Positions 223 to 34,440 of a stretch of 64,000 nucleotides of DNA are shown one piece after another. Origin of the DNA: Perna viridis. Lineage: Eukaryota. The notes beneath the pieces are model-generated. The model was not told the origin of the DNA and did not search any database. It saw only the letters and a program-made list of their open reading frames with translations. Made by a program: the position numbers and the translations under genes. Each line of letters begins with the position of its first letter. The stretch's first letter is position 1. The DNA lies in the NCBI GenBank assembly GCA_037379345.1, contig CM074512.1:25916001-25980000 (forward strand), given 5' to 3'.

Positions 223-370
223 GGGTGATGAAGACCATATTAATAACTATGTTAAACCAGAGTTATTGAAGAAGATAATGACCACCTATCCACATGAGTT
301 TAAGAATGATGATCTTGCTAGGAACCAATGTAGAGACAGAATTGTAGCAAGTGTACTCTACTCTATCAGG
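223..370 (+). CDS. TRPS exon (first in window, MHR region)
   Basis: ag/..../gtaagt; GDEDHINNYVKPELLKK...SVLYSIR. Confidence 0.8.
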
Positions 371-9300: not shown

Positions 9301-12300
9301 ATAATGAAATTTATCATTCAATGCATTTCTAATTTTGATTGAAATTGGTTTGTTTGTGATAAGAAAGTAATGTTTCATTTTAAAAACAACACAGTTGAAT
9401 GATGGTATGTATTGAACTTCTGTAACCCTAGTAACCAAAGCACAGATTTTAGTATGAATATGTATAGTTAAATCTTCTTACTTTGTCCAATAGAAACTTT
9501 GTTTTTAATTTCTGTTCCTTCATATTGGTCTGTTCAACTTTAATTAAACGAAACACGTGTAAGGTACTTTAGTTTCATCCTTGTAGCACCCCCTACAAAA
9601 AAAGGGAAAAAAAGAAAAAATGTATAACTTACAAATTTGATCTGTTGTGATATATTTCCACTGCTATAAATATTATGTAGAAATCTTAACATAATCCAAA
9701 CAGGTGTAAATATATCTCAATAAGGTGTCCTTTCCTTTTCTTTTATCTGAAGTAGAATCAGTTGATGCTAAAATACAATTAAAATTTGAAGTGTTTAACT
9801 TGATGACATGCAGGTATTTCAAATAAACATTCAAAATTTTTTAGAACTAAAAAATTTTAAATCTTTTGAAATTGGGTATCTTCAGTCATAATTATAAGTT
9901 ACAAAACTGTGAATTATTTTTGCACATTTATAGACACCAGTAATGAAAAATACCCAAAATGGTATGGTTTCTTTTATAATGTATAAAATACCCATTCCAA
10001 AGTGGTGTGGCTTCTTTTTATAATGTACATAATTTGTTTGTCAAATTAGACCAGCTTTGTGGTAAGTAGTCCTCACTTAAATTGTAACACAAAAATTATG
10101 ATAGATTGTATATCAGTAACTGTGGTGGTTTTAAATATTTTATCTGTACTATAACCTTGGTTCCCTTGATTAATCTTTCAAATGGAGGACTGTTCATTTT
10201 TTTTCAGTCCATCACCATGCCATTATTTCATTTTGATTTAAAATGCTTTACAATGTCTACCACATTACCTGAATATAGCTGAAATATTGCTGCTCAGGCA
10301 TTAAACCCCAATAGTCAATGTCTACCACTGTAATAGGACTGTACTTCATGAGAGAAGATGACTGATTAAACAATCTCATTAAAAACAGTCAAAATCTTGT
10401 TTGCATCTTTGTTAAAATATCCTTTGAATTTCTATTTATCATGACTTCTACCCTGTTAATATTCTCACTTACACACTTATTTCAATTTTGCACTTTAATT
10501 TTTTAATGCATTGGTAATGAGAACTAATTTTTCAGGATTAATAGTTTGTACATGCCTGTTTTTGATGGACATAAATTATAATGGTATACTGTTTGTCTGT
10601 GAGTCCATCTTGTCTGTCTTCTGTCTGTCCACCCATTCATTGGTCTTTTGTCTACAAGTAGTCTACAATAACCATAAAGCATAAAGAAATTTTAATAATG
10701 GTATAACGTTTGTCCTCAGGAACTGAAGATCTATTTTGTTCTTCATTTGTTTCCCATTTTTTTGTGTGTGTCAATGTTATGATAATTTAAACACTGAACA
10801 CTGCAACAAAATTAAGGGACTTGATATATAGTGTGATGAAACACAATGTTTTATTACAATTTTGAATAATAAAAGTACATTTTTTTTTAAAGAAACTTTG
10901 ATATTTAAAAAATAAAAGATTTACATTTGTATTCCAGCAAATGAAATCCATCTATTCATATAAATTGCTGTTATATAAATAAATCTTAAAATGTGTCCAT
11001 GGACAATCCTTAACAATCTTTTAGTCAATTTGAAAAAAAAGTTTGATCTCAGATTAATTGCAACAGAAGATATTTTCCAATGGGATTTTCTATTGAACAA
11101 GGGATACAGTTCTAGCTAAAACCTATGTTTTTGTAGATTTTTAAAATATCGTATTCCCACTTTCAAATATTGTATCCCCACTTAAAAAGTGGATAGTGTA
11201 CAGGAATCAACTTGTCATTCTATCTGTCCATCCATCTGTTATCCTGTCCATCTGAACTTAGTTGCATTTATCTCAACTTTCAATGGATGGGTTGATGTCA
11301 AGTTTGATATGTAGCTTTACATTAATGGGACATACATTATAAGACATTTCAATTACCTTAGTTTGTTGGGTGGGAGTTAATTTATGAAGTAATAGTGCAA
11401 AGATGGCTGTCATCGACATTGCAGCAGAGTCCTATCTTCATTCCATAATATTACCCGGGACTTTTCCATTTTTCAATACATGAATATGGAATGATAGAAA
11501 AAAAATTTGTCAGAAAAATGTTGGTGTCCACTGAAGAGACTGATTTCTTATGTGGTACTATGAAATTACTTGAATTCGTGGAAACCAATTTTTGTGGATA
11601 AGGGAAGAAACACAAGCTTGTGGATTCTTGAATTCGTGGTTTTGAGGTTTTCAGTATACAAATCATTGGAAATCTCCTTTTTGTTGGGAACCAAACTTTG
11701 TGGTTTAGTCTACTCAAGAAAACCACAGAAATTATAACCCCATGAACAATAGTACTCACACAATATATGGCTATATTGATTGGGTATATGTTGTAAGTAT
11801 CTTCGGTTGCTGTCCAATATCATCTCCTTGTGTGAGTGGGTGTATACCTGACAGGACAATACATGCAACTTCATATTTTCTTCCTCTGCTTGTCAGGATT
11901 GATATTTAGTTGGACTAAATGGCATAATTTGATGTTTATTAACACAATTTTATTTGTACCGGTAGTTTGATTTTTTTGACAAATTTTATCCCTCAGAATA
12001 TGTGAATTTTGAACCGTATTATGATTTAGAAAAAAAATAGTGAAAATGTATTTTTTCTTTCAATAATATCAATTATTTCTTCTTGGTTAAAAAAATCTGT
12101 GAATTTTTCTAATATTTATCATTTGACAATATCTCGATATCCTATAATTTATGGAAAAGAGTATTTTAAGAGAGAAAATTAAATTAAGAACTTGAAAAAA
12201 ATAGCAAACCTCTGTAATTATATTTATAGATATTTTTACTTAACATGTCTTACTGACATATTTTGCATTAAAAAAAAAAACAGTATTTATTATTTTCTTG

Positions 12301-15300
12301 TGGTCTTGATAAAAATTCCTGCAGTTTTTTAAGAGTTATTCCCCTTATTGGATAAAGAATCCGAGAGGAATTTTGAAATTCTACTTATAATATCACCTAC
12401 TGTTGGATTTTTGTATGATATATTCCAGCAAATTACTATAAAACTATCTTCTGTTGTTGGGATCAGTTTGAAGAGAGGGTCAACAAAATGTGCTTTGCTT
12501 CACTGGCAATGCCTTTCTTATATTAAATACTTAACTAAGATTAGACATTTAAAAAAAAAAACAAATCTTATACTCACAGACAGAACAGATAAAATGTGGA
12601 CTATTCTTGGACCACAATATTCGGTAGATAAATCGTGTAATTAAAAAGAATCAATTTATTATTAGCTTGAGTACCTGTTTCAGATCCCCACAATCATGCT
12701 GAAGATAATGCTGTTACTAATGAGGAACATCGTAGTTTGATTAATTACTATAATCATAGAGGTAGCTCAGTAATTCTCCTCCTGCTAGGCCATTTCTTAA
12801 TCAGTAGTTATGACAAATCTTTTTTCTTTCAGAATTAAATTGTTTTAACTTGTAAGCTAGCAAGAATGTATCAATAAACTTGTCATTGAATGTACATGTA
12901 CTTGGATAACCATACAAGATTATGATATCATGGATAACGAGCTTGGGTGTTTGGGCAAAAGAGTTTGGCCAAAATTTCAATAGTAGAGTCATATCAGTAT
13001 ATTTTGCTATACTAATTAAAGATGTCGTCCAATAAGCCAGATTTTTATGCAGTATTAATGTGATTCAATGTGTTTAAATGGATTATTACATTAAGTACAT
13101 GTATTGAGGTAAATGTTGCTGAGCTTGTTTTTGAGTGAATTGTAAGCATTCAGATTATTATTTCCCTTTCTATTTCTTTGGTGTATATAAACATCTTCAT
13201 TGATTCGATCTTGCATGTTGATTATTTGTTATATTATTCACCATATGGAATACTCAGAATTTATTGATGCTGGTACTTTATAACCATCAGCTTTTTGCTA
13301 GCTGAAAAGATGCTGAAAAGTGATATATTGAGCTTTCTGTTCTGGGATATGCTTAAGCCTGCTACTAGAATATTATGTGAAGACCAATTATTTTTTTTTT
13401 TCTAGTATGTAATTTTTTTCCTACTTGATCAAAAGCTGTTACTGATTGACTTATTAATCATCAACTTGTAATAATATTACATTGAGCATAAATGCATTTA
13501 CTGGTTTGACAGATTTAATTTGTAAAATTTATTCAGATATGTCTATTTTAAAAGCATCTTTTGCAACATCTTTTAAATGAAATATGCAAGTAGTAAATGG
13601 TTAATCTTAATGCTTTCTTTATTGCTGGACTTGTTTTCTCCATTAAACAATTAGACAAGTATGATGGATATATTATATATTATCTGCCAAGTTGCTAAAT
13701 TATTAACCCTTTATCATACCTACGAAGGTGCAGTGCTGTAATTCAGTGTTGTCATATATTATAATCTATAAGCCACTGCAGTTTATTAATTCCATTTTAA
13801 TTGCTTAATAAAAATAGATTTTACACAACTGTGCATGTTTAGTCCATTCTAGCTTGAGAACAGTTAAATGCTTAGTGCTATCATTATATCATTAGAGAAT
13901 AACCAGAATTAAAATGATTTTAATAAGACTGGTTCTTTCTCTTGCCATGAAGTAGATATAATTCCTTGAATTTTGTTTGTAGATGACCTAGAAGAACAAA
14001 AGACTGATTCTTATCCTTCAAAGTACACCCCTGTGTTTGTTGATGATTGGGTAGGTTAAAAGACTTCTTGCTGCCAGTTAGATATTATTTTTGTTGACAA
14101 TTTATCTGCGCTTATTTTGAGAAATGTATAAAAACAACATGAAAATAAAATGTTGCAAATAAGGCCCCTTATTATGGAAAACAAGGTCAAGAGAGTGTTT
14201 GTTGGGAAGTTGAAGATTGAATTGATATCATGAAATGTGGAAATAAGTATCATTGAAAATGAGTTCGTTTTCAGTAGTTACACTGTGATAGTCAATGAAT
14301 CGAGGGCAATACAGCTTATTGTAGGCATCAATATTTTTACAGTATGGTAGAGTTGTAACACACACAACACAAAGTTTTAGATGATGTAACCAACAAAAAT
14401 CATTTCATTTCAATTATACATAGTGTCAGGTTTTATTATTAGACAAATGATGAAATTATGATAAAATAATAGGTATGTAGCTGTTTGTCTGTTTGATTTT
14501 TTTTATATGGATTTTATTTCACACAAAGTGACATGGTATTATAAAATTAGTATTATTACTAAATTGTCCAACAGATGCTCAATTTTTTGGGTGTGTAGAA
14601 AATTATAGATTAAATTTTGATTTGTCACGGTATTACATGTATATTTACCTCAGATTGTAAAGCCATCATCCACTATGATGTATAAGATGAAGAATGTATG
14701 GCATTACAGTAAAGAGAGATTTAAGGTTCCTATTCACCTACAATTTTACTACCTGTGGAGTGCACCTATTACTAAGTTTTGGCTCAACCAGGTAAGGAAA
14801 CATCTTTCAAGGTACTGTTATATGAAGTAAAATGAATATGCAGTCTACAAAGTCCATTTATACAAAATCAGATAAAGATTAGGTCAAGGCAGATAGATTT
14901 TAAAAAATACCTTCTTTCAAGATGCATCTGCATTTAATCCCTGATTTGTCACTGTGACTTTTGATCAGACTGAATCAAATTCTTAGTGATCTGTATGTCC
15001 TGAGTGGAGCAATGTTACAATAACAGTGTTCTTTGATAGTGAGTTTTGAATACTGTGAATTTTAGTAATAATTGTGATGTACTAGTATACATAACTGTTG
15101 AGTTATCATTGAGTTTTTTATGCTATATGTAAACTGACGTTATTGTCCCCCCCGACACCTCTTTTTTTGTACTGCTCCTACCAAAGAAGTTTGTTTTTGG
15201 CATGTAGTCTTATTAAGAAGAATTACAGAATAAGTTCGACTCTAGTTATGGTTGAATGATTTTTACAGAAGTTATGGCCCTTGGACTTAGAAAATTTCAG

Positions 15301-18300
15301 TGAATTTATAGTTACAGTTTTGTAATGCTTTTACCAATTTTTGTAATAAATTACTTGTATAACATCATGTTTTTTCAAATATTCATATATATATATAGCC
15401 TTGTTTAGTGTTATTGTAACATTACATGGACACTGATAAGGAAGGCGATTTGTTGGTTGAAATATTTATTTTTATGTGGGGCACAAATTTGGAACCCTGT
15501 TCTTTTTTTGATTTTTTTTTAGATAACTGAAAAGTTATTTTTCTAGTTATCTAAGAAATTCAAATTGCATATCAGGCTAAATTGACAAATTTACAATAAC
15601 TAGTGTAAGCAATACTTTTGAGTACTTTTACTACATTTAGTTATTAAACATTTACAATCTCATGCTCTGAAAATCCCCTGTTATAAAGTAAAAAGATTTC
15701 TAGGTTACCGCATTGTATCATAAAAAATCTGGTTCACTCTGAAAAATTTGCTACAATGTAAACCTTGGTTAGTTTGTCTGGACTAACTTCTTCAGTTCCC
15801 ACTTCTCTTAAGGGCAGTCCATATTTATATTTTTTCTTTGCCAAAAATAAAAATGTCAGTGTCAGTTGATTTATAAAGAAATCAAGCCAGTTACATATTC
15901 TATTTGATATGATAATTTACATGGTATGTGTTTAATGTTTTGACAGCTGAAAGAATTCTATTGTTGAGTCAACAGTTAATTTAAGATATCTTTTAACATA
16001 TAACAGTAGTATTATTTGAATTTGGAATTATTTTGGATTTAAGAAAATAAGTGAAATAATTAAATATGAACCTTACCCTTCTAAGGGGGTTAGTCATGCC
16101 ATCATGATCAAGGGGGGTTAGTAAGTTTCCTTGATTTTTGTTATCCTACTAACCCTACCTCTTAGCCATGCCGGCATGACTAACCCACTTAGTAAGGTTT
16201 ACTTTTACAAATTTATTTTTGGTCATTTTCTTAATTCCAAAATAATTCCTAATTCAAACAATACCTTGTTTAATGCATTCAACTTAGAGAAATTCATTGA
16301 CATGATGTCATTTGAGGTCACACGTGGTCTTGGTGATTCTACCTGTATGGTCACGTGTTCTTGGGGACAACATTTTTATTCCTTTTGTTTTGTCACGTGT
16401 GTTCTTGATGACAGCATTTTTATTCCACTTGTATGTTCACACTGGGACCTGAGGTAACTAATCCAAATAACTTTGCATTATAATTGTTTAACCTTAGTTC
16501 ACCCTACTCCAGTTTCAGATATTTACATTATCCAAATTTAGTCCTGATTTTGCAAAGTATTAAAAGGGTATCAAGAAATACAATATCTAAGGTTCAATAA
16601 AGAACTATTGAATCCAAGGTTTAACGCTGCATAGTTTCATTGCACATATTTATGATTTTAGATATTCTACATAGTATTCCTGATCTTGTTCAGTTTAGCA
16701 ACACTATGGCCCTATTGTGGTAGTTTGAAGCTGGATATGGCAGTGTTTGGATGGACTCTGATGATCTGGACAGAACTTGTCAGAACAACGATTGTGAAGT
16801 GGAAGGTACATACAGATGTGCTGATCTTACTTCTGTCAACAGACTCACATTTTTTTTACTGTTTTTCCCATGTATCTTGTTAACTACATGAGATGAATTA
16901 TAAGTGTTAGAAAATTAAAATTATTATCAAAATTTTATTGTCCATATCACTGTAAGTTTTTGTGTGAAATTAACATGTCTTATGTGTTTTTGTTATTGGT
17001 TTTTCAGATATCTCAGAAATGGTGAATCAGATAAATAACTGAAGTATAAAAATTCGTCCATGAAATTCCTTAAATCCTCATGGATTTGTGAAAATTTAGT
17101 TGTTATTTATCTCTCAGTAGACTTACAACACAATAACATAGCCATATAACATCTTTTTTTTTTTTTACATGATTATGGAAGGTGAGCGACTCAGGGGTAT
17201 AATGAATTGCATGATTATGGTAAGGTGAGCGACTCAGGGGTCTAATGAATCACATGATTGTGGTAAGGTGAGTGACTCAGGGCTCTAATGAATCGCTGTC
17301 TATCATAAATGATTGGATAGGAACTATTTAAAGAATTCAAATGCAAGTATTTTCAGCAAGTTTGTTATACTGGCATATTCTACAGTTGTATTACTTTACT
17401 GAAATGATTGCATATTTAGTTCTTTCAGTTATTATAATAGAATTGTTCCTGTATGATTTCAGAAATACAGAGAATTGGATTTGTTCTGGACTGTAATAGA
17501 GATATTTGTAATGTTTTTCCTCATCATAGTAGTATTTACAGCCAGGATACCACAGTACTTCAAGCCATTCTTTACTTATCTCACTACCAAGTTTATCATG
17601 AGCTGTGGACTTATCTACTTCTATTACCGAGTTCTGGTGGTATTTCTGCCAATCAGTTCTATTTTGGGTCCTATGATTATTAGCATCAGAAGGATGGCAA
17701 GTTTTTTTATGCTTACATAAACGTGCTACAATAAACTAAAGAATATTTACATGTTTTATTGACTTATTGACCTAATATCTTTTTTGGTTTAATCTTCAAT
17801 ATTCTGAGTCCAACACTATCAGTAAGCATTTTTGGTTAATTACTCATTTTATGAACCTTTAAAGCAGATTTTTTTTTTAATATAAACAAATTGGAATTGC
17901 CACGATGTTATTGCCATGATTTTTGTTCAGAATTCAGCTTTCATATTTTCAGCTGGTTTTCTTTATTCATATATTTTGTTCTTGTAGTTTGTATTGAGTA
18001 GGATTAGCTTTAAGGGTTTGTTTTGTAAATTTTTGCTAGAAATTTAGTAAAGATTGTATCCTTTACAGATAAAGCATGATTTTCTGACCTGGTTTAGAAT
18101 GTTTATAATTATTATGGTGTCAGGAGCCATTGCTATTCAGGCAGTATTGTACCCAAACTATCCACTGATTCCTGAAGCTATCAGGGTATCATTTTCCAGG
18201 GCATTCTTTGCCATGTTCCTAACAAAGATCGATGACTTGGAAGGTATGTAGGCCTAATATGGTAAATCAAAGCAAAAAAATAGTTAGATTATTATCCAAA

Positions 18301-21300
18301 ACTTGAACAAACACCAGAAAAAAAATAAGGAACTAGAAAGAAAAATTGAAAGACTCTATATTAAAATATAATCTTTCAGCTAAGCAAAACTTGGATAATG
18401 AAGTAAGTGCACTCGTAGGGTAAGCATGTGCTTTTAGAGACACCCACTCAGTTGTATATGATGCGCTTAATTAAATACTGAGTAAAAAAAGTCTGTGGTA
18501 AGAATATTAAGTCAACCCAATAACACATATATGGTCAAAGATGTACTCAAGTTATCATGTACATGAGTAAAAGGAAGTAATTTGTCTATATTTTTGTTTC
18601 AAATTAAATGATATAAAATCATCTGTCATCTTTACTGATAATTATATCTGAAAAAAAGTTTTTTTTTGACATTTTCCTTTTCATTTATATCAACTGATTA
18701 TATATGGAGAAGTAATCAAAATTTCTTCATTATGATTGGTGTTGAATTGGTATACTTTAATAGAATCATATTGCATTTCAAATCTTCAAAAAAATTAATT
18801 TTTATAACCTGTTTCCATTGAAAAGTATGTACATCTTTCCAGGAGCTGAATGTTCTTCTATGTATAACAATGTTACAGTTATTGATCGTTGTTATGGTGA
18901 GTGTCATTATATTTTCATATTATAGATATACTGTTAATTCTAAAACTATTGATATGATAATTTGTTAAATGGATTGTAATCACACTAATTAAAACTTACA
19001 TAATGGAAGCTACTATTTTTTAAGATTTTCCTAAAGCGTTTAAAAAATCTTTATGAATTTTGGTGTGTGACTTTATGAAGATGGGGCATATGTTGAAAGC
19101 TATTTTAGGTGCTGTCTGCTATGAACTTCCTATTTTTTAGGACTTTGCCATTTTTCACTGTATGGAACGATAAGAAAATCTTTGTCACAAAAATCTCAGC
19201 TCCCAAAAAATAGATTGTTTTCAAATTTGGTTTGTTGAATTAAATAATGGGGCATACTTTGTAAGGTATTTTGGGTGCTATCCAGTATCAAGTGAGTATA
19301 CACCTAACATTATAGTATGACTTGCAGGTTTATGTTTAATGTACCTTTTGTTTGCAGAGAGGAGGGAGCCTTTGAAGTCACTGTTCAGAAGAACAAATGA
19401 ATCAATATTTTGTAAGTATAAATGTCAGAGCTTCTAAATAAATGATACTTTGTGTCAGAAATGGCATTATTATTATTTTCATTTGCAGATTTCACTGTTT
19501 ACTTTTTAAAATTGTTAATAATTTTCTAGCTTCCAATATTTTTCCTGTTTGGCTCTTCTATGATGGGGCCTTAAATTGTTTGTAGTTGCCATAAAGATTG
19601 TTCTGTAACTTAGTAATTTTTTTACTGTTTTCTCTTCAAATTTGTCCTGAATCTGGAAGCAGTTTTCTAGAAATGAATTTCCAGTGGAGCCAGCAGACAA
19701 CCCATCACATTTTGTACACACTTTAATCATTGAAGACTACATGTTATTTAAGCAAATTCCAAAATGTATGACACACTCAGTGAAAACTAAAAAATATTGA
19801 CTGGCCTTTCCTCATTCACCAAAATTCAGTTTTGTTAAAATTCTAAAGGATTGACATACAATGAGCTCATAGATGTAGGCTATATAAAACATCACATGAC
19901 TCATACTGGCTAAAGGGTGCCTCAGGGATGTGCATGATAGGGAATTTATTTCCTAAGAGTTGCAACTGATGTCAAATTACCATGGCTTATCATCTAAGGT
20001 GATATCACACTCTTCTTTACAGCTAAAGATGAGTTATCTAAGTGTCCTTACAGTAGTTTAGGAGGATATTTTGTAGTCATACAGTACCTGCTCATTGTCA
20101 AGTTGATATTGGTCACTCTATTGTTTGCATTGTTCAGGTATGTATGAGACTATTTAGTGACTTAATTTGTATCTTTTATTTCTTTGGTGTTTCTTTTTTA
20201 ATAGACAGATATTAATTTGTTTTGAGAAGTCAATTGGAATATTTTTATGTGAGATTGCAAGGATCTTTGAGAATTGGATACAAAACCAATGATGTCATAT
20301 ACAAAGAATGCATAATATAAGGATTTCTGTAGAAACAGGTTGTTAGATATTGGTTAGAATCTGTTTTGCAAACAGTTGATAAGTGTATGTACACCCAGTC
20401 TCAATAGACTGAATATTAAATTGCATATCAGGGGCTCAAATTTCTTTAAACTTTATATATTGCAACAGTAGAAATATGTTACAGTAATAATTGCTCAAAA
20501 AGATTTTATATTTATTCACCCTTTCAATATTATTACCAAAGAATTATAAATTTTACTTTTATTACACTATCTTGAAATATGATATGACTATGATACTGAC
20601 TCTTTACTTGATATATCCAGATACAAAGTTTATATAGGAACCCCCTTCTAAAAGAAACCCTGAATGATTCAATGGAATTTTATGAAACTTTATTGGAAGG
20701 TTTGGCATCATATATTAGATGTGCATGAAGTAAAATAATGATTGCCAGATGCCTTGAAAAAGGGAGAATCCAACTAAAGGGTATAACATGTTGTAAGTGG
20801 GTTTCTACTTGGCTCACTAACCCCCTCCTTACAAATTATAGTTCTGATTTGTTTATGAGTGTATTACATTTATTGTAATTTAATCACATTAGAATATTAT
20901 CTTTTTTCTCAGCTTATTCATATTTACCAATGCATATAATGGAAAAAACTGCCTTTTTTTATTTCGTGGGTACAATGTAACAGTTCCCTGTACTATTTCT
21001 CAAATGAAGGTTTTGATTTTCTGAATTTCTTTCAACAGTCGTACAACAGCCAATGTTGAAGAAGAATCAGAAGCAATTTACAAGTTTCAGAAATATAGTT
21101 TGATTGTGGACTTCGAGGAGAAATTAATAATGCCACCTCCACTTAATATCATAAGCTACACTATGATGATATTCCAGAACCTCTTCAAGTATCTCTGTTG
21201 TCTGTTTAAGAAGTGTAAAAATTGCTCCCACTGCTGCAGAAGAGATGATTCTGTGGTAGGTTTGACAGGTGTGGTACGAAAAGAACAAGAGAAGTAATAA

Positions 21301-24300
21301 CAAGAGTCTTAGGAATGGATTAGTAGGGAAACTTTAAAAGGATGCTGATAAAGGATAATTATTTTAACTGCATAAACATATTTTAAATATTAACATTCTT
21401 TTTCATCATTGAAATGAGAACTACACTGAATGATAAGTTAGTTCCAAGGCTTTTAGATCTTTATTTGTCATCTACATCTCTAGGTTATAAATATCTCAGT
21501 TATCATTGTAGATTTGTATATTTCTGAAAGGTCAATTATTTGTGATATCCTTGTCTCTAGTAAAAAATATCAGAAGGCACTAGACAGCTGTATTTTGCAG
21601 GATGGGGCAAGAAAAGTTTCTATAATGATGATGCAATATTCAGAGGACTATAGCTACTGGGGCAACTTTGTTAAAAAGTTGGATTATGATGAACATGAAC
21701 AAGAGAAAGAAAAGGACAGAGCTAAAATAGAAAGTGAAAAGTAAGTCATCTTGATAATATAAATTTCAGGTGCTAAGTATTAGGCAAAAATTATGTATTG
21801 TTAGCAATTCCTATGCTATTTGATGTATCATTTTTAATTTATTAGTGAGCACCACAAAGCAGTGTGAGCTGTACGGTTATTACATGTACTATCTAATTTT
21901 CCTTAAGGTTCCTCAATATACATTGTACTAAAGAAAAAAAAGTCAGGTCCTGGAAGTAACAAAAAGTGACTTTCCTTATGGAGAAAATTCAATGTTTCCT
22001 TAAATCAAACTAACAAAAATATAAAGGTTAAGATTACATTCAGTAAAAATTAACTTAATCTTTTCTGATAGTTTTCGAGTTTTGGATGTACGTATGTATC
22101 GATGCTGTTCTACTGTTACTCTTGTCAAGAACCTAACATGCCTTGGAAAAAATATATTGTAATATCCAAATCGACGAATAGCTTTTCTGTAATAGGAATG
22201 ACAATTATTTTCTTTTTGAAATTGGCAGAGCTCTGTCAGTTGCATCTGAATTTTGTTTATGTCACGATATGTGTAAGAATAATCAAAGGAACCAAGATTC
22301 TAGCGGAAATCAAAAGAATGTTATCCAGGGACAAAGACCAGACATGGAAAACAGACAAACACAACAAAGAACATAAGATAACAAAAATAATATATACAAA
22401 GTAACAAAAGTAAATGAGCAATTCTGACTCCACTTAAAACTGGGAGCATGGACCAGGTGTACCAGTAGGGTAAGCTTCCTCTGTTTTTCTAGAAACATCT
22501 GCAGAGTTGCTCATGTCTGGGGTGAACAAAAGAGGAAAGGATAACTACGACAGGTTGAACAAATCAGTTATAAAATATTCCCACCATCTGCCTACAACTG
22601 TAATATTTCCAATATCTGTATAAATTAATCTGACCTGCTACAACAGAAAAGGATGTTTCTAGTGATGTCCTTAAGGGTTAAAAATTTTAAAGCATGGCAA
22701 AGTGAGACAAATTTATCCACCATTTTGAAAGCGAGGGAAAAGGAGGAATATGACTGGGATTTTGGAAAAACTTTTCTCTAATTTTGCTTCAATTTTCATA
22801 CCGCTTGACCGATGTGGAAAAAGATGTTCTCATCACTAGTGACTTTTTTGTTCTCAGAGTTTGATTGGCTTAGAAATGGATTGTCTTGGACTCCATCTAG
22901 AATCGCCATAATTGCCATTGTAGTTATCTTTCAGTTAAATGAGATAGTTTGGTGTTTTCTTTCCTTAAATAAGAATTATGATGGGACTGGGGAAGATTTG
23001 AAGTGAAAAAACATTTGAAATCGTCTGGTTTCCTTTGTTTGGAATGTTTGCCTTTGTGTGATGTCAACATGTTTCCTATGAATCGGAATCATAACATTTT
23101 GCACGCTTTTCATTTTTGGATATTTTTGACGTGTTTTGGGCATTAGAGAGATAGTTAAACAGTTAAAAAAGTTTTAGCATTTTTATAGCCCAACGTGAGG
23201 GGTATATAGGGATAGGGATGTCTTTTCATCCTTCTTTCCTTCCTTTGCACTGTTACACAGAGGGGGACCCATGTCTTATCCAATACTCCTCCTAAACTTA
23301 TTGAAACTTTCACAGAATCTTTATTACAATTTCCCATTGTTTCCCTTTTATTTAAGATTGTGATCCATATCAATTAAGGGGTTCCACATGGTAAAACATG
23401 AACTTTGTCATTTATGAATATGGGAACATGGTGGAGACCTATCTCTTCTGTCATCTTCCTACATAGCCAAGTGAAATTTTATGAAACTTCACAGAATCAT
23501 TTACAACTTCCCCTTAAGTGCTCAAGGGATTTTGATGAAATTCTATAGCAATGGTAGATATCATATATAGATGTGCATGAAGAGTCATAATTACTGTTGG
23601 AGGACTCCAAAGGGAGATATCCAAATTAAGGGTTTTACATGTTAAAACCTTGTTAGTGCAACTCCTCCATAACTGCTCAAGGGATTTAGTTGAAATTTAT
23701 AGGAAGGTTGGGTATTGTTTGGAGATATGTTGAAGGAATATAATTACTGTTGGAGGACTCCATACATGATAAAACCTCGTAAGTACAACTCCTCTTAAAA
23801 GTTCTCTATGGATTTTAAAGTAATTTTACAGGAAGGTCTGGTATCATATGTAGATGTGCATGAAGGTGTATAATTATTGTTGGATGACCAACAATTTATT
23901 TTAAAGTCTATTTGAAACAGGGGTTGTTCTCTTTGTGAGCACAGTATTTCTTGTCTGTTATGTTATAATATGTAAATTGCCATATTCACTCTGTCTTATG
24001 GTCTCAGATAAATGACCTTGCACTCAAAATTTGAATTTCTATCAGAGTAATACCAAGCTGAAATCAAAGCTTGTACCCTTGGCATTCTGTAAAGATTTTT
24101 TGGAATGAAACTTGGTTGACAAAAAGATTTTTCTAAGACTTTTTCAACTTATCTCCCCTGATATAATTTAATTTCTTAATGAGGTGCTTTTATAGTAGTA
24201 CATGTAATTGACAGGGCTATTCTGGGAACAATTTAGTGACAATCTAAATACAGACTTAAAGTGCAGCATTTACGATTATGAATAGTACATATTTGGCCTA

Positions 24301-27300
24301 AAATTTATGATTACATACAGTATATATCATGCAAGTAATAAAACTGAAAAAAAAAATGATTTAAAAAAAAAAATTTGTTTCTACCCACTTTGTGTTTCTT
24401 TCCTATTGTCTTAGTTTCCTATGTATTTACTAACATTATCCTTTTGCTTTTTCTCTACAACATCTAGTCTTTTTCAGTGTCTATCTGAAGCTCTGATTTT
24501 TCAATGTAATTTTTTCCCATAGGTTGGACAGTCTAATTGCCCAGTTTGCATTAGAAAGAAAACATAATGGTAAAATGGTTGAGCAAATCTCTAGCTTAGA
24601 AACAAATGTTGCTAACTGTCAGATAGCTTTAGAAGAACTGAAGCATATGATAGAGAAAATTAGTGAGTAAATATTACTGGTGGTATTTTTATTGTTCCAC
24701 CATGATTTAGATATGTAAAATTTTACTCTGCATACTGTAAAAAAAATGCCCAAAATAAAGCTAAATTGAAAGTGTCTTATAATCAAAACTATAATTGTAC
24801 TGTTTAACCAAAAATTTTGTGACAATCAATTTTTTTTGTTATTTTGCAATGACGAAGACTCCACAAAAATATGGTGAAATATGATTACAATTTATTTTTA
24901 CCTTAGAAGCTTGTGATCAGTAACTAAGTCCCCAAGTAACCCTTGTACAATCACAATCATGATCAATATTGTATAACCACAAGTAGTCAACTATTTGCAT
25001 TCAAATTTTAAAATTTGATGTCAGTGCACCTAAGGCAAGCATGTCTTGAACTCTGATGAGTCATTTAGTTGATATAAAATATTGGACTCTCCTTGCTTGT
25101 TGGCCAGATTGGTTTTGAGTTTATTAGATCAAGATTGCATATTACACTCAGGTAGTTTTTGACAGAATGACAGCCTTTAATTTGTTTGTATGCTTTCTTT
25201 CAGAGGGAAAATTAGTATTTTATTAGTATTTTAAAAATATAAAAAGGAATATAACATTCCATACATTGAACATACTGAAGCAGCTTACAACTAATGATCA
25301 ATATGAATTTTAGATCCACACTTACAGCCAGCATTAACTTCAGAAGAGAAAATGATACATATACTCAGTAGAAGATCTCCTTACCCAGAAACAGTAGTCG
25401 CTAGGTTTTCTGTTTTTGACAAATATGTGCCTTGGGAGGTAATTGCATTTGTTAATTTGTAGATAAAAATTGTAATAGGAACTTTTCCTAAAACCCACAA
25501 TTGAATGTTTATTCATTGTCACTTTTAAAAAAAATATTTGCATAGCAGCAAAAATTTATGAACTGCTATGAATGAATCCATCTTTCAAATGTGTAAGCAT
25601 AAATCAGTAATTTAATTTCAGATGTTTCCTTTTTAAAAAAGATCTTTACTCTTTTTAATCCACCTTTCAATATACCCTCTAACTAAGTGATGTGGGAATC
25701 CTTTGCCTGTCTGTGAAACTACTCAAAAACCTATCGAATATGAGGGTTCAACATTATACCAGTAGGATTTGGTTTGACAGATGCTTTGTATGGAAGATAA
25801 TCATATTTAAATACAGGTATTTTATATGTCACACTCAGGTTTATCACTCAATTAGCTTACTCAGTTCTAGATAAAAAAGGACTTCCAATGTAACATTTGG
25901 ATAGTTTCAAATTAGATTTTTTTCATATTTATATTTGTATATAGGAATCAACCCATTTGTCTGTTTGTCCGTCTGTCCCCATATTGTGCTAGCACAAATC
26001 CTCCTAAACTGCTCAAGGGATTTTGATGTAATTTTATAGGACTGTTGGGCATCATATGTAGATAGTTGCTGTCTGATGATGTGAGAGGGAGATAATTCAA
26101 CTCAAGGCTTTTACATGTTTTAACTTGTCTGCACAACTGCTCCTTAACCATGCAAGGAGTTTTGTTGAAATTTTCTTTGAAAGGTGGGCATTGTATGTAG
26201 ATGTGCATAAAGGATTGTAGTTACTGTTCGATGACTAGAAAGGGAGATTATCCAACTTATAGAGTTTTACATGTTAAAACCTCGTCAACACAACTTAAGG
26301 GATTTATTATGAAATTTTGTAGGAAGGTTTTGCATCATATATAGATGTAGATGAAGAAAAATAATTATAGTGTGAGGACTCCAAATGGATATACAAGGAT
26401 ATATAATTGAACTTATGAGTTATGTAACTTCATTTGAAGTGCGGGTACTGTAGGTAATGTCAGAGGACTCTAAAGCAAGTTAATTGAGCTTAAGTGTTAT
26501 ACATTTTACTTTCTACTTTATAATTAGTATCGTATATATATGTTGTATTGTCTTTTTTTCCAATCTGAGCAGACACCATACAGTACCTATGACCCAGTGA
26601 TTTACACATGTCCTGTTGATCAGTATCCTTCAGAAACTCAGCCATTTGTTGATCCAGATTTTCTTAAGTAAGTCTATTATCACTTAAAAATAATAATAAA
26701 ATGGGGACAAAATACAGTATAACACATGAAGAAGGGGCTTAAAATCTTTATTATATAACCATAACTTAGAAATAATCTAAACAATCAATAACTATACCTA
26801 ATGAAAATGTTAGCATATAAAATCTGTGTTGTTTTGTGTGTGTGTGTGTGTTTTTTTTTTTTTTCATTTTTGTCCATGGCTTTAATATATGCCTATGTTT
26901 AAAGTGAGCTGTAAAGGGTGATCAGGCTCTCTGGATGTTCTTTTATATACTTCTCTCTTCCTTTAACTGTTGGATTTTTGTGAAAATTTCGGGACTTCAG
27001 GACTTGACTATTACTTAATACTGCTGTTTACCTTCTATTTCAATTTATAGTTCCAATCAGCGAGTGAATGGTATATTGACATCACCTTGTCTGTCCATCT
27101 TTTGGTCTGTCATTCCCTCCATCCTAATTTTGGCTCAATTATCTCAGCTCCCAATAGATGAATTGATTACAAACTTGTTTTGTGGCTTTATATTGGTGGA
27201 GAATAACTTGTAAGCGAATTTGGTTGTGTCAAATATTAAATTCTTGTACAAGTAGGAGTATACCTAGCATTTCAATGTGTGTAACTTCATGTTTATTTTA

Positions 27301-30300
27301 TCTGATTGAATTTGGTATTTCTATAAGCATAACATAGACTTTGCAATTGGTTCAGATATAGTTTGTTGGCAACTCCTCCCATGCCACCATAATCAATCTA
27401 AATGAAATTTTCAAAAGCTATAATTAGTTATGAATGAGAAGTTTCCTTTAGTCTATGACTTAGTAAATGTAGTACATGTAATGAAATTGAAGAAATTCAA
27501 AATCACAAATCATGGAGATATTAAATCGGTACAAACTGGTAAAATCAAGGATGTATCAGAAATTAAAGTAACCACTATATTCCTGACTTGGTACAGGCAA
27601 TTCGAAGTAAACTTTATTTAAGAAGGGGATAGCTGTTCCCATTTGTTTCTGAGGGAACATTAATCATATCACAAAGACAAATTTGCATTAGTATTCAATT
27701 TCTTATGATTTAAATGCATTTTTGGTTTATATTAAAACTTGGACATTCTAAAAATGTATGTGTACATAGCTGAACAGTGGAATTCGTGAGCTTTGCTCTT
27801 GTAATTGCAGTTTTTGTCCATCCACGGTAAGGTGGAAAGGAACATAGAAAAACTGTTGTCGGTCTGTCACATTTGTGGATGCAACTCCTCAAAAACTGCT
27901 CAATGGATTTCGTTTAAATTTTGCTGGATTGTTAGTCATCATTTGTTGTTAATCCTATAGCACCATCATTTTGATTTGATAAATTTTACAGGAGTAATGG
28001 GACTTCTGCACTTATTTGCTGGAGGTAGGGGACATACTGCTGTATGTGTAACAATCTTGTAGATAGTTATAGCTATAGGTTATAGAGATAAAATTGTCAT
28101 TGATTTTATATTAATTGTAATTGAATGATGTATGTTTTGTAAACAAGCATATGAATAATAATTGCTAATTTTTTTTTATCTTATAGATCACTTATAGACA
28201 GTAAAGTGGTATCTTTTGAGGATATAAGTAAATCTGATGTCATGTCTTCTATGCCAGTCTGGAATACTGTGTCTACCTTCATGGTTAATGGCAAGGAGAG
28301 GGAGATAGACAGACAGACACACATCAAACAGAATGGGCAACAGATTCAATATCTTCTAGATACATGTAACCTACCACTGTAAGTTTAATTTAAATAGCAG
28401 AGGCTGGTTTGTTTTGATGTTAAAATTATATAAAATGAATTGAATTTTTTGCAAATTCTAATTTATGGAACCTGGTTCTTTTTGAATATTTGGCCCCTTG
28501 ACATTGGGCATCTGTCATGACGGGAATCGTATGAACAATCCAACTATGATGTTGCCATGGTTCTCGGAGAACAATGTTAGAAACTTCATAATGTTACTTT
28601 TGACCAATCAGATTTTATTAACAATGTGACACAATCATACAACAACCAATCACAACAGCGATTTTTTGATATCATTTGTTTGTATCAAACTGAGCCATGG
28701 TGTGATATTACAAAATATTTAGTTGCCCAAGAAGTTGATAAAACAACCAATTGAATTTTGACCAAAATGATAAATTAAATGACCAACAGTGAATGTTTTG
28801 ATTTCTTATGAATTTTAATTATTATTGTATGAAATGTTATCACAATCAAGTATTATTTAATTTAAATTTCTGACTTCCTTTTATAGAAATCCTATGGGGA
28901 GAACTGGTATAAGAGGGAAAGGTAGACTAAACAGGTGGGGTCCTAATCATAATGTGATGTTATTGGTGACACGATGTAAAAAGAAGGATGACCAACCCAT
29001 GATGGTTGAGGATAAAAAGGTACTGGAAGTGATTGCTAGACAGAAACCAGGACAGTCTAATTATAAACTACCTAGGGTAAGTTAGTTGGTATTGTATGAA
29101 ATTACCATGTTAAAATATTGCAACCATGACTTTCTTTAGGTATTTGATATTTTATTTTATGGAAGCTTTGTATTGAAACATCCAAATTTGTTACAGTTAA
29201 GATATGAGGAGTTTTAACTGAAATGCTAGTTATTGTTATTTTTACTGTGACATTGATGGCCATCATTATTTTTATCATTAAGGTATTTGTTCATTGAAGG
29301 TGTCAGTTTAAATGACCACAGAGTGAAAAAAAGTTAAATTTTGATAATTCATAAAAAGGTAGATCATTCCTTTAATGAGTTACAGGTAGAAATCATATTA
29401 TTTCTACATTTTACAGGAATTACTGAAAATACTGACCCAAATTCCAATCAGAATATTTTATTGCGAGTTATTCTCCTATGAACCATAAAATTTCACATGA
29501 GTGTGTTTTCCTTGAATTTTTCAGGGAGGAGACTATGGTTACATGACAGTTTATAGTGCTGTATGTCAGAAGTTCCTAACAGTTACTGCTGAAGATAACA
29601 AAACCAAAATTAAACCAGACATGAATGCTGATGATATGATTAAGGTAATTACATAACTTCTGTGGTAACTTGTGGTGGACCACAGTGACTTCATATATCA
29701 TGTATGAGATATGTAGAATATCCATGTTTATGATAAAAAAAACTTAATCACTTGTTAATTTAAGGAATATATTTCATTTCAGTTTTTCAAGAGTTATCTG
29801 TCAGCTCCCTTTGCCTCATCAATGATCTACAGAGGATATTTTGATGATCAATACAACACTGACAATGCATGGAGGGAAGTAGAGGTCTGGAACCTCCACT
29901 TTGATCAGTTGACCGAAACTTTCAAACAGGTATATTTAACTCATATTAAAATAAACTTATTGTCAGTTGGTATTATTTCCTTTGAGTGTAGTGACATTCA
30001 ATAAAGTTTATTACATAGACCTAGGAACCTGAAAAATAATACATGAATTCATACTTGTCATTTGCTCCCATTGACCCCAGATTTAACTCTGAATAACCTT
30101 TTCACATCAGAGAAACAATGTAATTCAACATTTTGACGTCATTAATCTTAAGTTGAAGGAAAATTCAGTATGGAAACAAAAGGAAAATATGTTATTTTCC
30201 TCAATGGCATCCATAAGTGTAAATATATCTATTCATATGTGATATATAATGTAAAATGATATGGTCAATTTCATAAATTTTTAAATGTGGAACTGAATGT

Positions 30301-30906
30301 CAGTCACGACATCATTATCACTGCTTCACTAATACAGTTATATAGTTATACTAATTTACACATATAGCTTCTGTAGTTCGTTACTATTTTTCATACTTAT
30401 TGAATTTTTAATGTAGAAACATCAATTTTATTGATGTGCTGTGTAGCCATTGCCATACACTAATAAATCACTAGATATTTTAGTGTATGACCATGGATAG
30501 GTTAAAAACTTTTAAAATTAAAACATTACATGGCAATACAGGCATTTTTATTATGACACTGGTGAACTCAAGCCTCTGTGAACCACCAGTGATGTTGAAC
30601 TTACACACTGGTGAACTCAAGCCTCTGTGAACCACCAGTGATGTTGAACTTAGTACTACTCTATTAGTACATTAATATGTTTGGCTATAATTCATAAACA
30701 AACAATTAAAAAAAATTATAGCCTTATCCTTAATGAGATAACCATGACGATTTATAACTTCTGTGTTATACTGATTTATTATGTGTATAATTGTATTTTT
30801 ATAGGACTCTAGGCAATGGAAAACAGTTTCCTCCTACAACACTTTCCATGGAAGTCAGGATCTTATTCTAAGACAAGCTGCTAGTCTTCATGATGCTTAT
30901 TATTGA
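223..30906 (+). CDS. ced-11: TRPS/soromelastatin (CED-11-like, TRPM2-like) cation channel with C-terminal NUDT9-homology domain; 5'-partial, 27 exons
   Basis: Exons 223-370,1525-1618,2001-2131,3714-3908,4388-4555,5868-6049,7803-8055,8953-9043,12684-12761,13983-14050,14654-14791,16662-16805,17463-17696,18069-18243,18843-18896,19358-19411,20023-20137,21039-21255,21601-21740,24523-24662,25314-25438,26573-26667,28187-28378,28887-29076,29525-29644,29783-29929,30805-30906 join in one frame (3790 nt) ending TGA 30904-30906. Motifs: LKLTLDWNRHDLA, LVFWAAL, YLWSAPITKFWL, LGPMIISIRRM, YKFQKY..PPPL, NPMGRTGIRGKGRLNRWGPNH, NTDNAW. The TRP-family call is firm; TRPS rather than TRPM rests on recalled CED-11 sequence. 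Confidence 0.9.
447..567. repeat. Direct duplication, 55-bp unit, period 66
   Basis: aatatgaatattactactggaacatattagcagtgatagtgaagtcttggtagat twice. Confidence 0.9.
1525..1618 (+). CDS. TRPS exon (MHR)
   Basis: EEQNFLTVLDIDRDNSGLKNLNKYILLALFE; gtaagt donor. Confidence 0.9.
2001..2131 (+). CDS. TRPS exon (MHR3/4)
   Basis: LQRNLKLTLDWNRHDLAVSRIF matches the TRPM LxLxLxWNR motif. Confidence 0.92.
3255..3631 (+). mobile_element. 3' end of the same Penelope-like family (ORF end KFYGRYHELVDHY plus 3' flank)
   Basis: Shares sequence with 47666-47790 (reverse strand) and with 34441-34727. Confidence 0.8.
3714..3908 (+). CDS. TRPS exon
   Basis: LDLAMIKKDRHKFVELFLD...GYSP; gtgagt donor. Confidence 0.92.
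4388..4555 (+). CDS. TRPS exon
   Basis: ISDYPVGKRF...IAERK; phase 0-0. Confidence 0.85.
4820..5031. mobile_element. Tc1/mariner-type MITE (related copies about 11557-11765, 31658-31919, 32704-32906)
   Basis: TA-CTGTG...CACAG-TA termini with internal inverted ttcgtgg/ccacgaa-type motifs. Confidence 0.6.
5868..6049 (+). CDS. TRPS exon (MHR4)
   Basis: AINILVFWAALNYDTELTKTLWKKTEEPMA. Confidence 0.92.
7803..8055 (+). CDS. TRPS exon (MHR4/pre-S1)
   Basis: EFGELAVKLLDYSY...HFIAHYICQKWLNRRWFG. Confidence 0.93.
8953..9043 (+). CDS. TRPS exon (pre-S1)
   Basis: IYMSLMLIFPMFIWIDYD... Confidence 0.88.
12684..12761 (+). CDS. TRPS exon (pre-S1 loop, symmetric, possible cassette)
   Basis: cag/ DPHNHAEDNAVTNEEHRSLINYYNHR /gtagct; 78 nt, phase 1-1. 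Confidence 0.6.
13983..14050 (+). CDS. TRPS exon
   Basis: DLEEQKTDSYPSKYTPVFVDDW; supplies the phase 1 to 0 change needed for frame. Confidence 0.8.
14654..14791 (+). CDS. TRPS exon (start of S1)
   Basis: QFYYLWSAPITKFWLNQ. Confidence 0.93.
16069..16200. repeat. Imperfect foldback inverted repeat
   Basis: gggttagtcatgcc / ggcatgactaaccc arms. Confidence 0.75.
16662..16805 (+). CDS. TRPS exon (S1-S2)
   Basis: IFYIVFLILFSLATLWPYCGSLKLDMAVFGWTLMIWTELVR. Confidence 0.93.
17168..17293. repeat. Tandem repeat, 42-43 bp x3
   Basis: catgattatggtaaggtgagcgactcaggggtctaatgaat. Confidence 0.9.
17463..17696 (+). CDS. TRPS exon (S3-S4, S4-S5 linker); GC donor
   Basis: ...YFYYRVLVVFLPISSILGPMIISIRRM /gcaagt. 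Confidence 0.9.
18069..18243 (+). CDS. TRPS exon (S5, pore helix, filter)
   Basis: IKHDFLTWFRMFIIIMVSGAIAIQAVLYP...FAMFLTKIDDLE. Confidence 0.93.
18843..18896 (+). CDS. TRPS pore-turret micro-exon A
   Basis: ccag/ GAECSSMYNNVTVIDRCY /gtgagt; 54 nt. Confidence 0.82.
19358..19411 (+). CDS. TRPS pore-turret micro-exon B
   Basis: ttgcag/ ERREPLKSLFRRTNESIF /gtaagt; 54 nt. Confidence 0.7.
20023..20137 (+). CDS. TRPS exon (S6)
   Basis: KCPYSSLGGYFVVIQYLLIVKLILVTLLFALFS. Confidence 0.93.
21039..21255 (+). CDS. TRPS exon (TRP helix)
   Basis: ANVEEESEAIYKFQKYSLIVDFEEKLIMPPPLNII. Confidence 0.93.
21601..21740 (+). CDS. TRPS exon (rib helix region)
   Basis: DGARKVSIMMMQYSEDYSYWGNF...EKEKDRAKIESE. 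Confidence 0.88.
22300..22570 (-). mobile_element. Penelope-like 3' fragment
   Basis: Reverse complement of about 3330-3600 (ccagggacaaagaccagacatggaaaac...tttctagaaaca). Confidence 0.8.
23480..23950 (+). repeat. Decayed interspersed element with internal tandem subunits (Helitron/HINE-like); related arrays at about 7150-7700, 20640-20800, 25950-26480, 50850-51050
   Basis: Recurrent ggcatcatatatagatgtgcatgaagg...gtgcaactcctc motif. Confidence 0.55.
24523..24662 (+). CDS. TRPS exon (coiled coil)
   Basis: LDSLIAQF...QISSLETNVANCQIALEELKHMIEKI, heptad pattern. Confidence 0.88.
25314..25438 (+). CDS. TRPS exon (start of NUDT9-H)
   Basis: HILSRRSPYPETVVARFSVFDKYVPWE. Confidence 0.92.
26573..26667 (+). 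CDS. TRPS exon (NUDT9-H)
   Basis: TPYSTYDPVIYT...PFVDPD. Confidence 0.9.
28187..28378 (+). CDS. TRPS exon (NUDT9-H)
   Basis: PVWN...IDRQT...YLLDTCNLPL. Confidence 0.9.
28887..29076 (+). CDS. TRPS exon (NUDT9-H core)
   Basis: NPMGRTGIRGKGRLNRWGPNHNVMLLVTR...YKLPR. Confidence 0.95.
29525..29644 (+). CDS. TRPS exon (degenerate Nudix-box region)
   Basis: GGDYGYMTVYSAVCQKFLTVTAEDNK; phase 0-0. Confidence 0.85.
29783..29929 (+). CDS. TRPS exon (NUDT9-H)
   Basis: IYRGYFDDQYNTDNAWREVEVWNLH. Confidence 0.94.
30556..30651. repeat. Tandem duplication, period 49, each unit with an 8-bp stem
   Basis: cactggtg...caccagtg. Confidence 0.9.
30805..30906 (+). CDS. TRPS terminal coding exon
   Basis: DSRQWKTVSSYNTFHGSQDLILRQAASLHDAYY*, resembles the NUDT9 C-terminus. 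Confidence 0.9.
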   Translation, partial: DSRQWKTVSSYNTFHGSQDLILRQAASLHDAYY

Positions 30907-30933
30907 ATCATGAGACTTTGCTTTCTACCTCTA

Positions 30934-30939
30934 AATAAA
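30934..30939 (+). terminator. Candidate proximal polyadenylation signal AATAAA
   Basis: Hexamer about 28 nt after the stop codon; other AATAAA sites occur further downstream (about 33 kb), so usage is unknown. Confidence 0.3.
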
Positions 30940-31259
30940 CTGCTAGTCTTTGCTAGTTTGCCACCAGTTTTATTGAAACTTTTGATTTAATATATGTATT
31001 ATGCCATGTTAAGGAAGTATGCCTTCAGTGATTTGTAGCATTTGTTTGTTTATTTTTCTCATATTTCTTATCATGTACATGTATGGTAGTTCTTAAAATA
31101 GCAAAGAAGTAGAATCCGTTCATATAACATGGTATTGGTGTAATATTGAAACTCATTTATTTACAATGAGGTAATATGGTCTGGGCAAGATATTAAAACA
31201 GTTAAATGTTTATTACAAATATCAAATTTAGTTTGGGCATAGTATGGAATTGGGATATT

Positions 31260-31512
31260 GTATTTACATGTGTGTAGTATGTTTTTTGTAGTATAGAAAC
31301 AGATCGATGTATTTACATATATATGGTATGGTTTTTTGTGTAGTACAGAAACAGGTTTGTGTATTTACATATATATAGTATGTTTTTTTGTGTAGTACAG
31401 AAACAGGTTTGTTTATTTTTGTGTAGTACAGAAACAGGTTTGTTTATTTTTGTGTAGTACAGAAACAGGTTTGTGTATTTTTGTGTAGTACAGAAACAGG
31501 TTTGTGTATTTT
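31260..31512. repeat. Minisatellite downstream of the TRPS stop (31-bp core)
   Basis: tttttgtgtagtacagaaacaggtttgt repeats. Confidence 0.9.
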
Positions 31513-33373: not shown

Positions 33374-33572
33374 GGCCAAAATAAAAAATATCCTAGATTC
33401 TCATCTTCTCCTGACCTGATGTTTTCACTCCCAAATCATTTTGAGTTTTTTGGCCTATTTCTTTCAAAATGACAATCTTTTTCACTAAAACTGATCAAAA
33501 AATAAAAAATAAGATTTGTCAGCCCACCTCAAAATTTGAACAAACCTGAATGAGAATCTAGGAGTTTTTCTT
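33374..33572. mobile_element. Harbinger-like MITE (family also at 57792 and 59550)
   Basis: Inverted cctagattctcat/atgagaatctagg after taa-ggcc. Confidence 0.55.
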
Positions 33573-34440
33573 AAGCAAATTGTTCATTAATATTACTTCA
33601 GTCTAAATTACATACTAGATTGGGCATCAATAGTCAGTATAACATCATACAAAAACTTATCTGTTTAGTACATATGAATTAGTGGTATGTGCTTGCCCTA
33701 TCAATTCAGATTCCCAAGTTCATTACTGACAGTTTACCCACATTAATTATTGATATGACAGCTGTTGTGTTTTATAGTTGCAAGTCCCCTACTTGTAATG
33801 CCAAAGGGAGCTTTAGATTTTGGCTCTTGTCTATATTTTACTCTCAAAACAATATTCCTGTCTTTCTTTGTACAATGCATTAACCAAATAAATTTAGTTT
33901 TTGGTTTGTGAAGTAGAAGTTACAAATTGTGCTAGATTATAGGACTGGTCACATTATTTTTGCTTTGAGTTGTTACCCTTAGAAAAAAAAAAAATTTCCT
34001 GATATTTTTTACAAGAATGATTTTCCAATAAAATTATTTTAATTTTAGTTATTGTGTAAAAATTGATGAGATATTAGAAGAATTTCCTTTGATAATAAAT
34101 AAATTAAAATTTTAAATTAAATGTATTTCTCATAGCTCTGGCAGCAAGTAGAGGGAATTGTATTGCCTAGTCACAAGTCTTTTTATAACCGGGTATTAAG
34201 CATTTATATGTTAGTGTACTTAGATGGCCATTAATTTTTACCTTACCACTCTTTGATTATTTTATACATTTATAATGCTTTGTGTTTTCTCTCAGTAAAT
34301 GTCTTGTTTGAAGTCTGTATTCAGTTTTTGATTTATGCCTGGGTAAAAAAAGGATGTGATGTATGATTGTATCAGACAACCAGCTTTAGAGAGTTTATCA
34401 TTTATCAAAATGCTAATGTGTTTATGCATTATAGTCATAT

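Follow-up and report, generated by a model that had tools for sequence, protein, structure and literature searches.

A TRPS channel gene of Perna viridis carries a NUDT9-homology domain with a degenerate Nudix box

We analysed a 64,000-nucleotide stretch of Perna viridis DNA (the window), AT-rich in base composition and eukaryotic, which holds the greater part of a TRPS (soromelastatin) channel gene. The C-terminal NUDT9-homology (NUDT9H) domain of this gene has a Nudix box whose catalytic residues are replaced. We consider it likely, with a probability of roughly 0.7, that the domain folds and serves the TRPS channel as a structural module without catalysis, being neither an enzyme nor an ADPR sensor.

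The interval 28887..30906 on the plus strand contains the final four coding exons of a TRP-channel gene modelled with 30-31 exons. A preliminary description of this DNA had given the same interval as the extent of the domain; the coordinates are exact, running from the start of the GRTG exon through the stop codon, and are right for those four exons, but the domain begins earlier, in the exon at 25314-25438. The features of the gene within the window are as follows.

223..30906, plus strand: in-window part of the TRPS gene, with 25 modelled coding exons and a candidate small exon at 19358-19411
14654..21255, plus strand: exons of the six-helix channel domain, pore and TRP helix (tblastn and gene model)
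25314-25438, 26573-26667 and 28187-28378, plus strand: first three exons of the NUDT9-homology domain (homology and contig joints)
28887-29076, plus strand: GRTG/WGPNH exon (match to nvTRPM2 and NUDT9; joints from contigs)
29525-29644, plus strand: degenerate Nudix-box exon (spliced in 4/4 runs)
29570..29584, plus strand: K-F-L-T-V codons, at the sites of E-F-x-E-E (nvTRPM2 E1443, E1446, E1447; srTRPM2 E1386, E1390)
29783-29929, plus strand: NTDNAW exon (NUDT9 match; contig joints)
30805-30906, plus strand: final coding exon, including the stop codon at 30904-30906 (contig joints)
30907..32300, plus strand: part or all of a probable 3' UTR (contigs continue from the last exon to 31362, with further ones at 31484-32300)

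Splice evidence came from contig sets over positions 24300-32300 for four of the 24 runs listed, each run belonging to a different study. None of these runs is recorded as RNA and their RNA nature is a guess, so the spliced joints themselves were used; contigs also drop rare isoforms. The GT..AG skips 28378|28887, 29076|29525, 29644|29783 and 29929|30805 each appear in 4/4 contig sets, as does the joint 25438|26573, while 26667|28187 appears in 3/4. The contigs bear out the modelled joints from 24662 onward; two joints are not displayed. The box exon, for which a transcript check had been proposed, is therefore spliced in all four sets, in runs whose RNA nature is, again, guessed.

The preliminary description had named a missed exon encoding GGxVDxGE..REFxEE as one of two findings that would overturn it. 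No such exon was found: the three plus-strand frames of the four introns (28379-30804) contain no EFxEE, GGxV[DE] or GDDA pattern, the sole match elsewhere being one EILEE within 30907-39000, past the stop codon, and the 4/4 spliced joints leave no room for an overlooked box. We rejected a missed box exon on these two grounds. The wider explanation, that the dead box reflects an annotation artefact (a missed or alternative exon) or that the domain is a slow ADPRase acting by a non-canonical route, gains a little from the existence of alternative box exons in the Perna viridis genome, in a NUDT9-like gene with two in tandem, from the rare isoforms that contigs may hide and from the two joints not displayed. 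We nevertheless find it hardly credible, given the direct joints 29076|29525 and 29929|30805 in 4/4 runs, introns free of any box-like motif and orthologues that share the dead box.

The NUDT9-like gene has its tandem box exons at L012:5070-4927 and L012:4886-4743 on the minus strand (G000:C9, about 32.303 Mb). Both read EFGEE, are of equal phase and lie about 40 bases apart; from their sequence they are candidate mutually exclusive exons that would provide two catalytic helices.

Within the channel gene, the contigs differ from the window at three positions that are likely allelic. At 30893 all four sets have G for A, which turns an Asp near the C-terminus into Gly, the scallop residue there; 28960 and 29863 show synonymous differences in 3/4 and 2/4 sets, respectively. 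A short tandem duplication occupies 30557-30652 inside the last intron. Downstream of the channel gene and unrelated to it are exons of anaphase-promoting complex subunit 1 (APC1; 40572-59953, plus strand), whose span includes a reverse-transcriptase fragment on the minus strand (47841-48431; Pfam RVT_1 weak, E 0.004, below cut-off). The APC1 region also holds a near-identical non-coding duplicate (43876-44064 and 45217-45405), and two near-identical copies of a dispersed, non-coding repeat lie at 3387-3641 and 34367-34735.

The motifs that flank the box reflect real homology to NUDT9, as had been claimed. Against PDB sequences, the GRTG exon matches nvTRPM2 (E 9e-10) and NUDT9 (E 3e-7), the NTDNAW exon has NUDT9 as its best match (E 1e-5), and human TRPM2 and srTRPM2 are also matched by single exons. 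The old Nudix box aligns in register and with no indel. Counted from the conserved Pro, positions +17/+18/+20/+21 are K,F,T,V in the window and E,F,E,E in nvTRPM2, and the three Mg-binding Glu sites of REUXEE are K, T and V. The structural Phe of REF is retained, a refinement of the earlier description. The GRTG exon closes at a phase-0 intron one codon past the conserved Pro preceding the box, and this intron is common to the window gene, a second TRPS gene (on C6) and the NUDT9-like gene on C9, whose box is canonical; the shared position and phase support the register independently of the alignment.

Two further changes reported earlier are also present. The DPRN motif reads DQYN, as it does in the Mytilus orthologue P0068, and the catalytic-base loop (srTRPM2 D1460; GDDA, given earlier as AGDDA) is shortened at the 29929|30805 junction, where there is Lys and no Asp at the base position. 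From the Trp of NTDNAW to the next conserved W there are 24 residues in the window versus 32 in nvTRPM2, a difference of eight. We do not claim homology between this last intron and the last intron of the NUDT9 gene, as their phases differ. With residue numbering verified against PDB chains, the srTRPM2 residues whose equivalents are lost are E1386, E1390, D1460, D1330, F1372 and R1428 (human R1433); those kept or conservatively replaced are D1426, R1360 (Lys) and W1264 (Phe). The Pfam NUDIX profile matches nvTRPM2 and NUDT9 and gives no match for P0068, the scallop protein P0010 or the window exons. The box exon is 75% identical to Mytilus and 12% to nvTRPM2, and the 23-residue box itself is 87% identical to Mytilus.

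The functions ascribed here to individual residues follow the relevant passages of PMC11479946, PMC6759353 and PMC6461439. D1460 is described as the catalytic base of srTRPM2 (PMC11479946), double mutants of the nvNUDT9-H box retain about 1% and 0.1% of kcat (PMC6461439), and the residue acting as base varies among Nudix enzymes (PMC6461439). From known Nudix chemistry, a domain with no equivalents of E1386, E1390 and D1460 could not place the Mg2+ ions and the attacking water, and we therefore infer from its sequence that the window domain has lost ADPR hydrolysis.

The rest of the gene was assembled by tblastn with homologues, followed by a homology-guided gene model; exons upstream of 24523, including the 5' exon, come purely from that homology model. 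The start codon and the bulk of the SLOG/MHR1-2 domain are encoded by five further exons that precede the window by up to about 8.3 kb on its contig. The resulting model has 30 exons and 1556 aa with zero internal stops, shares 1075 identities with the 1588-aa Mytilus galloprovincialis P0068 and is collinear with it; an extra 54-base exon (19358-19411) likely belongs to the gene as well. In order, the protein comprises a SLOG/melastatin region, the six-helix channel, the TRP helix, a coiled coil and the NUDT9-homology domain, after which it terminates, with no kinase. In P0068 the LSDAT_euk and TRPM2-like profiles both score above cut-off. An open frame of 1556 codons and a box so similar to that of Mytilus led us to reject the reading of this locus as a pseudogene in neutral decay.

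The gene is a TRPS gene, as the preliminary description had supposed. In a quick-mode, midpoint-rooted IQ-TREE phylogeny of the channel region, with NUDT9H removed, the window falls in a 44-row TRPS clade (SH-aLRT 100) separate from all TRPM rows. The tree has 63 rows, namely the window, all 42 TRPS-type and all seven invertebrate TRPM hits of a homologue search, two cluster members and 11 of about 22 vertebrate-type TRPM2, and is without ced-11, amphioxus, rows labelled TRPM-alpha or TRPM-gamma and an outgroup. The window is sister to Mytilus P0068 (SH-aLRT 100) within a bivalve group that includes scallop P0010, which is Pecten maximus XP_033743894.1 and is named TRPS in Table S1 of PMC13143021; with two Octopus rows likewise named there, three TRPS of that table lie inside the clade. 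Whole-protein BLASTP gives 1470 bits to scallop TRPS versus 358 to nvTRPM2, and over the channel region (14654..21255) identity is 60% to scallop TRPS and 22% to nvTRPM2. On the tree and the BLASTP scores we rejected orthology to TRPM2/TRPM-beta. The available text of PMC13143021 gives the absence of an N-terminal Cys-rich segment as a TRPS criterion, and there is one Cys in the first 70 residues of our model, hence no such segment, the 5' exon there being placed by homology alone. Separately, a divergent TRP segment and box 2 consensus is a TRPS criterion from PMC7306681 (Fig. 3B); the corresponding region of the window protein aligns with the remaining TRPS rows.

The degenerate box is a property of the family. 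The pattern E[FLIV]xE[ED] occurs at the box in 0/46 TRPS-type sequences (the 44 tree rows and two fragments), which rules out a species-specific loss; in four TRPS the first position is still Glu and in four others the last is still acidic, and no sequence combines the two. Full canonical box spacing is found in 7/8 free-standing or otherwise fused NUDT9-type rows, the exception being Trichinella, and in 4/8 invertebrate TRPM. The TRPS domain is not decaying, judging by its sequence: across 44 TRPS, 92 NUDT9H columns reach 85% conservation or more, and the old box bears a signature of its own, G-x4-Y-x3-C-x2-F (G 43/44, Y 39/44, C 38/44, F 42/44). The G, Y and C, newly conserved at these sites, might act in ligand binding or redox chemistry instead of packing.

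The Perna viridis genome has two further TRPS genes on C6, which belong to the other mollusc paralogue group. They are at L008-L009 (plus strand) and L010-L011 (minus strand), in G000:C6 31.30-31.53 Mb, about 200 kb apart and in opposite orientation, and both have a dead box and retain DDPRN. Among invertebrate TRPM, degenerate boxes are seen in P0093 (Potamilus; KFSEE, no GDDA), P0047 (Mya; no alignable box), P0094 (Acropora; YFKKQ) and P0089 (Oculina; EFSED), and these sequences suggest more losses of NUDT9H catalysis than the two that have been published. A Rotaria socialis fragment, P0005, which stands outside the tree, has a TRPS-type dead box with ESEVW-like flanks and hints at lophotrochozoan TRPS beyond molluscs, which the portions of PMC7306681 available to us did not find.

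Loss of catalysis across TRPS, and its independence from vertebrate TRPM2, is already published. Morini et al. 2026 (PMC13143021), in the text available, report that none of the TRPS they examined conserves the residues for ADPR hydrolysis, in a set that includes Pecten, Crassostrea, Octopus, Aplysia, Pomacea, C. elegans and amphioxus, and conclude that at least two losses of catalysis took place, one in ancestral TRPS and one in vertebrate TRPM2. The preliminary description was thus right that the loss in the TRPS lineage is separate from that of vertebrate TRPM2, and overstated its novelty and scope; since a second independent death of an NUDT9H enzyme is already in print, the present locus adds one more member. 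The passages seen of PMC7306681 describe two mollusc TRPS paralogues, and those of PMC12980990 note a Nudix domain in abalone TRPS and are silent on catalysis. The paralogue-specific loss of an Arg, the signature in the old box and the absence of activation sites described here did not turn up in the portions of the literature searched. The terms R1433 and 'calcium binding' are absent from the main text of PMC13143021, the alignment in its Figure S6A perhaps showing more columns.

The window domain is predicted to keep the NUDT9 fold. The sequence folded was the corresponding domain of the Mytilus orthologue, with a 51-row alignment; its model has a pLDDT of 88.3 and a pTM of 0.87, and a helix at 200-212 spans the old box. 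The best match of the model is NUDT9 (1qvj; Foldseek E 7e-22; Z 25.8, rmsd 2.7 over 262 residues), followed by srTRPM2 and human TRPM2 (Z 21-25), a likeness that is partly built in because 10 of the 51 alignment rows are intact or near-intact NUDT9/TRPM sequences.

A dead NUDT9H domain could still bind ADPR and take part in ADPR/Ca2+ gating, as in human TRPM2. Besides the fold match, the equivalent of D1431 (srTRPM2 D1426) is kept in the window, R302 is kept in 38/44 TRPS and the D872 position is acidic in 42/44, and PMC7306681, in the passages available, raises the possibility that TRPS is nucleotide-sensitive. However, the Arg equivalent to human R1433/srTRPM2 R1428 is replaced by Tyr (29852-29854), and a preprint (PMC13060097) reports that R1433A almost abolishes binding by human NUDT9H, which it argues is mainly structural. 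The equivalent of R1433 is found in 0/22 members of the window's mollusc paralogue group, where eight different residues occupy the position, and in 20/20 of the other group; elsewhere it is present in 1/2 ecdysozoans, 8/8 invertebrate TRPM and 11/11 vertebrate TRPM2. This loss, read from sequence, argues against ADPR sensing at NUDT9H in the window paralogue.

The residues through which TRPM2 is activated are largely missing as well. At the N-terminal ADPR site (M215/Y295/R302/R358) the window has T/Q/R/A, with R302 alone kept, and at four of the five positions of the S2-S3 Ca2+ site (E843/Q846/N869/D872; E1073 unmapped) it has L/T/T/E, a Glu being retained one residue before E843. Equivalents of M215, Y295, R358, E843 and Q846 occur in 0/44 TRPS versus 6 to 8 of 8 invertebrate TRPM rows, with the register at Y295 uncertain owing to a shorter loop in TRPS. 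Because so many of these residues are missing, patch clamping with ADPR and Ca2+ would likely yield no current. We consider a channel still gated by ADPR and Ca2+ very unlikely on these grounds.

Another possibility is that the dead domain has turned into a sensor of a different ligand (a nucleotide, a phosphorylated metabolite or oxidation of the box Cys) that gates TRPS, with different ligands for the two mollusc paralogues. The TRPS-specific box signature would fit such a role, as would the contrast between the paralogue pockets, in which R1433 is all or nothing and the D1330 position is K/R in 19/20 of the other group; moreover, a channel largely devoid of TRPM2 activation residues would need a different stimulus. 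Parts of the pocket also survive in TRPS, with an equivalent of D1426 in 42/44, a basic residue at R1360 in 35/44 and an aromatic at W1264 (Phe in the window), and some nucleotide could therefore still bind. None of our results points to any ligand, however; eight residues at the R1433 position look like relaxation and not new specificity, and helix packing can account for G, Y, C and F. We regard a sensor of this kind as unlikely. In a bolder form, which we put forward as speculation and think rather improbable, TRPS channels would not be ADPR/Ca2+ sensors, the dead domain would have been rebuilt as a metal-free ligand or redox pocket around G-x4-Y-x3-C-x2-F, and the paralogues would have diverged to different signals, one keeping and one discarding the phosphate-binding Arg. 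Our literature searches turned up no described TRPS ligand and no paper on TRPS electrophysiology, the latter being weak evidence of absence.

The reading we prefer is that the domain has a structural role in the channel and no catalytic one. As in vertebrate TRPM2, to judge by analogy, it may have been retained for packing into the cytoplasmic assembly, where it would support folding or gating. Catalytic loss would have been inherited from an early TRPS ancestor, and the loss of the Arg would be a later change, in one of the two mollusc paralogue groups only. With the loss of catalysis already documented, the remaining value of the locus lies in a sharper, testable prediction for TRPS channels: ADPR should be neither hydrolysed nor bound by NUDT9H of the window paralogue, whose channel should stay shut to ADPR and Ca2+, while binding of a phosphate-bearing ligand may persist in the sister paralogue. 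The pair would be a natural control for asking if a dead NUDT9H works as a sensor or as a structural element.

The closest known proteins to the window protein are Mytilus P0068 and Pecten maximus P0010, which are collinear with it over the whole protein at 67% and 46% identity, respectively. They belong to the same paralogue clade and share its dead box and its absent R1433 equivalent; their loop before the last W is 27-28 residues, 3-4 longer than the 24 of the window, and the rest is ordinary divergence. The other mollusc TRPS paralogue (Octopus XP_052825070 and XP_029638531, and the two C6 copies) resembles the window in architecture, dead box and the G/Y/C/F signature. Unlike the window, it has the R1433 equivalent throughout, an aromatic at W1264 in 19/20 and, six positions ahead of the last W, a Glu in 17/20. 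The NUDT9H domain of vertebrate TRPM2 (human; PDB 6PUS and 6MIX) is likewise a channel-fused, catalytically dead NUDT9 fold, but it arose in a different clade through different substitutions, and vertebrate TRPM2 retains R1433 (in all rows) together with an N-terminal ADPR site and a Ca2+ site that are largely missing from TRPS. Finally, the active chanzymes of Nematostella (6CO7) and Salpingoeca (8SR7) and NUDT9 itself (1Q33 and 1QVJ) have in common with the window the domain, its predicted fold (Z 24-26), GRTG, NTDNAW and the box Phe, whereas their E-F-x-E-E, D1330, R1428 and GDDA loop have no counterpart in the window.
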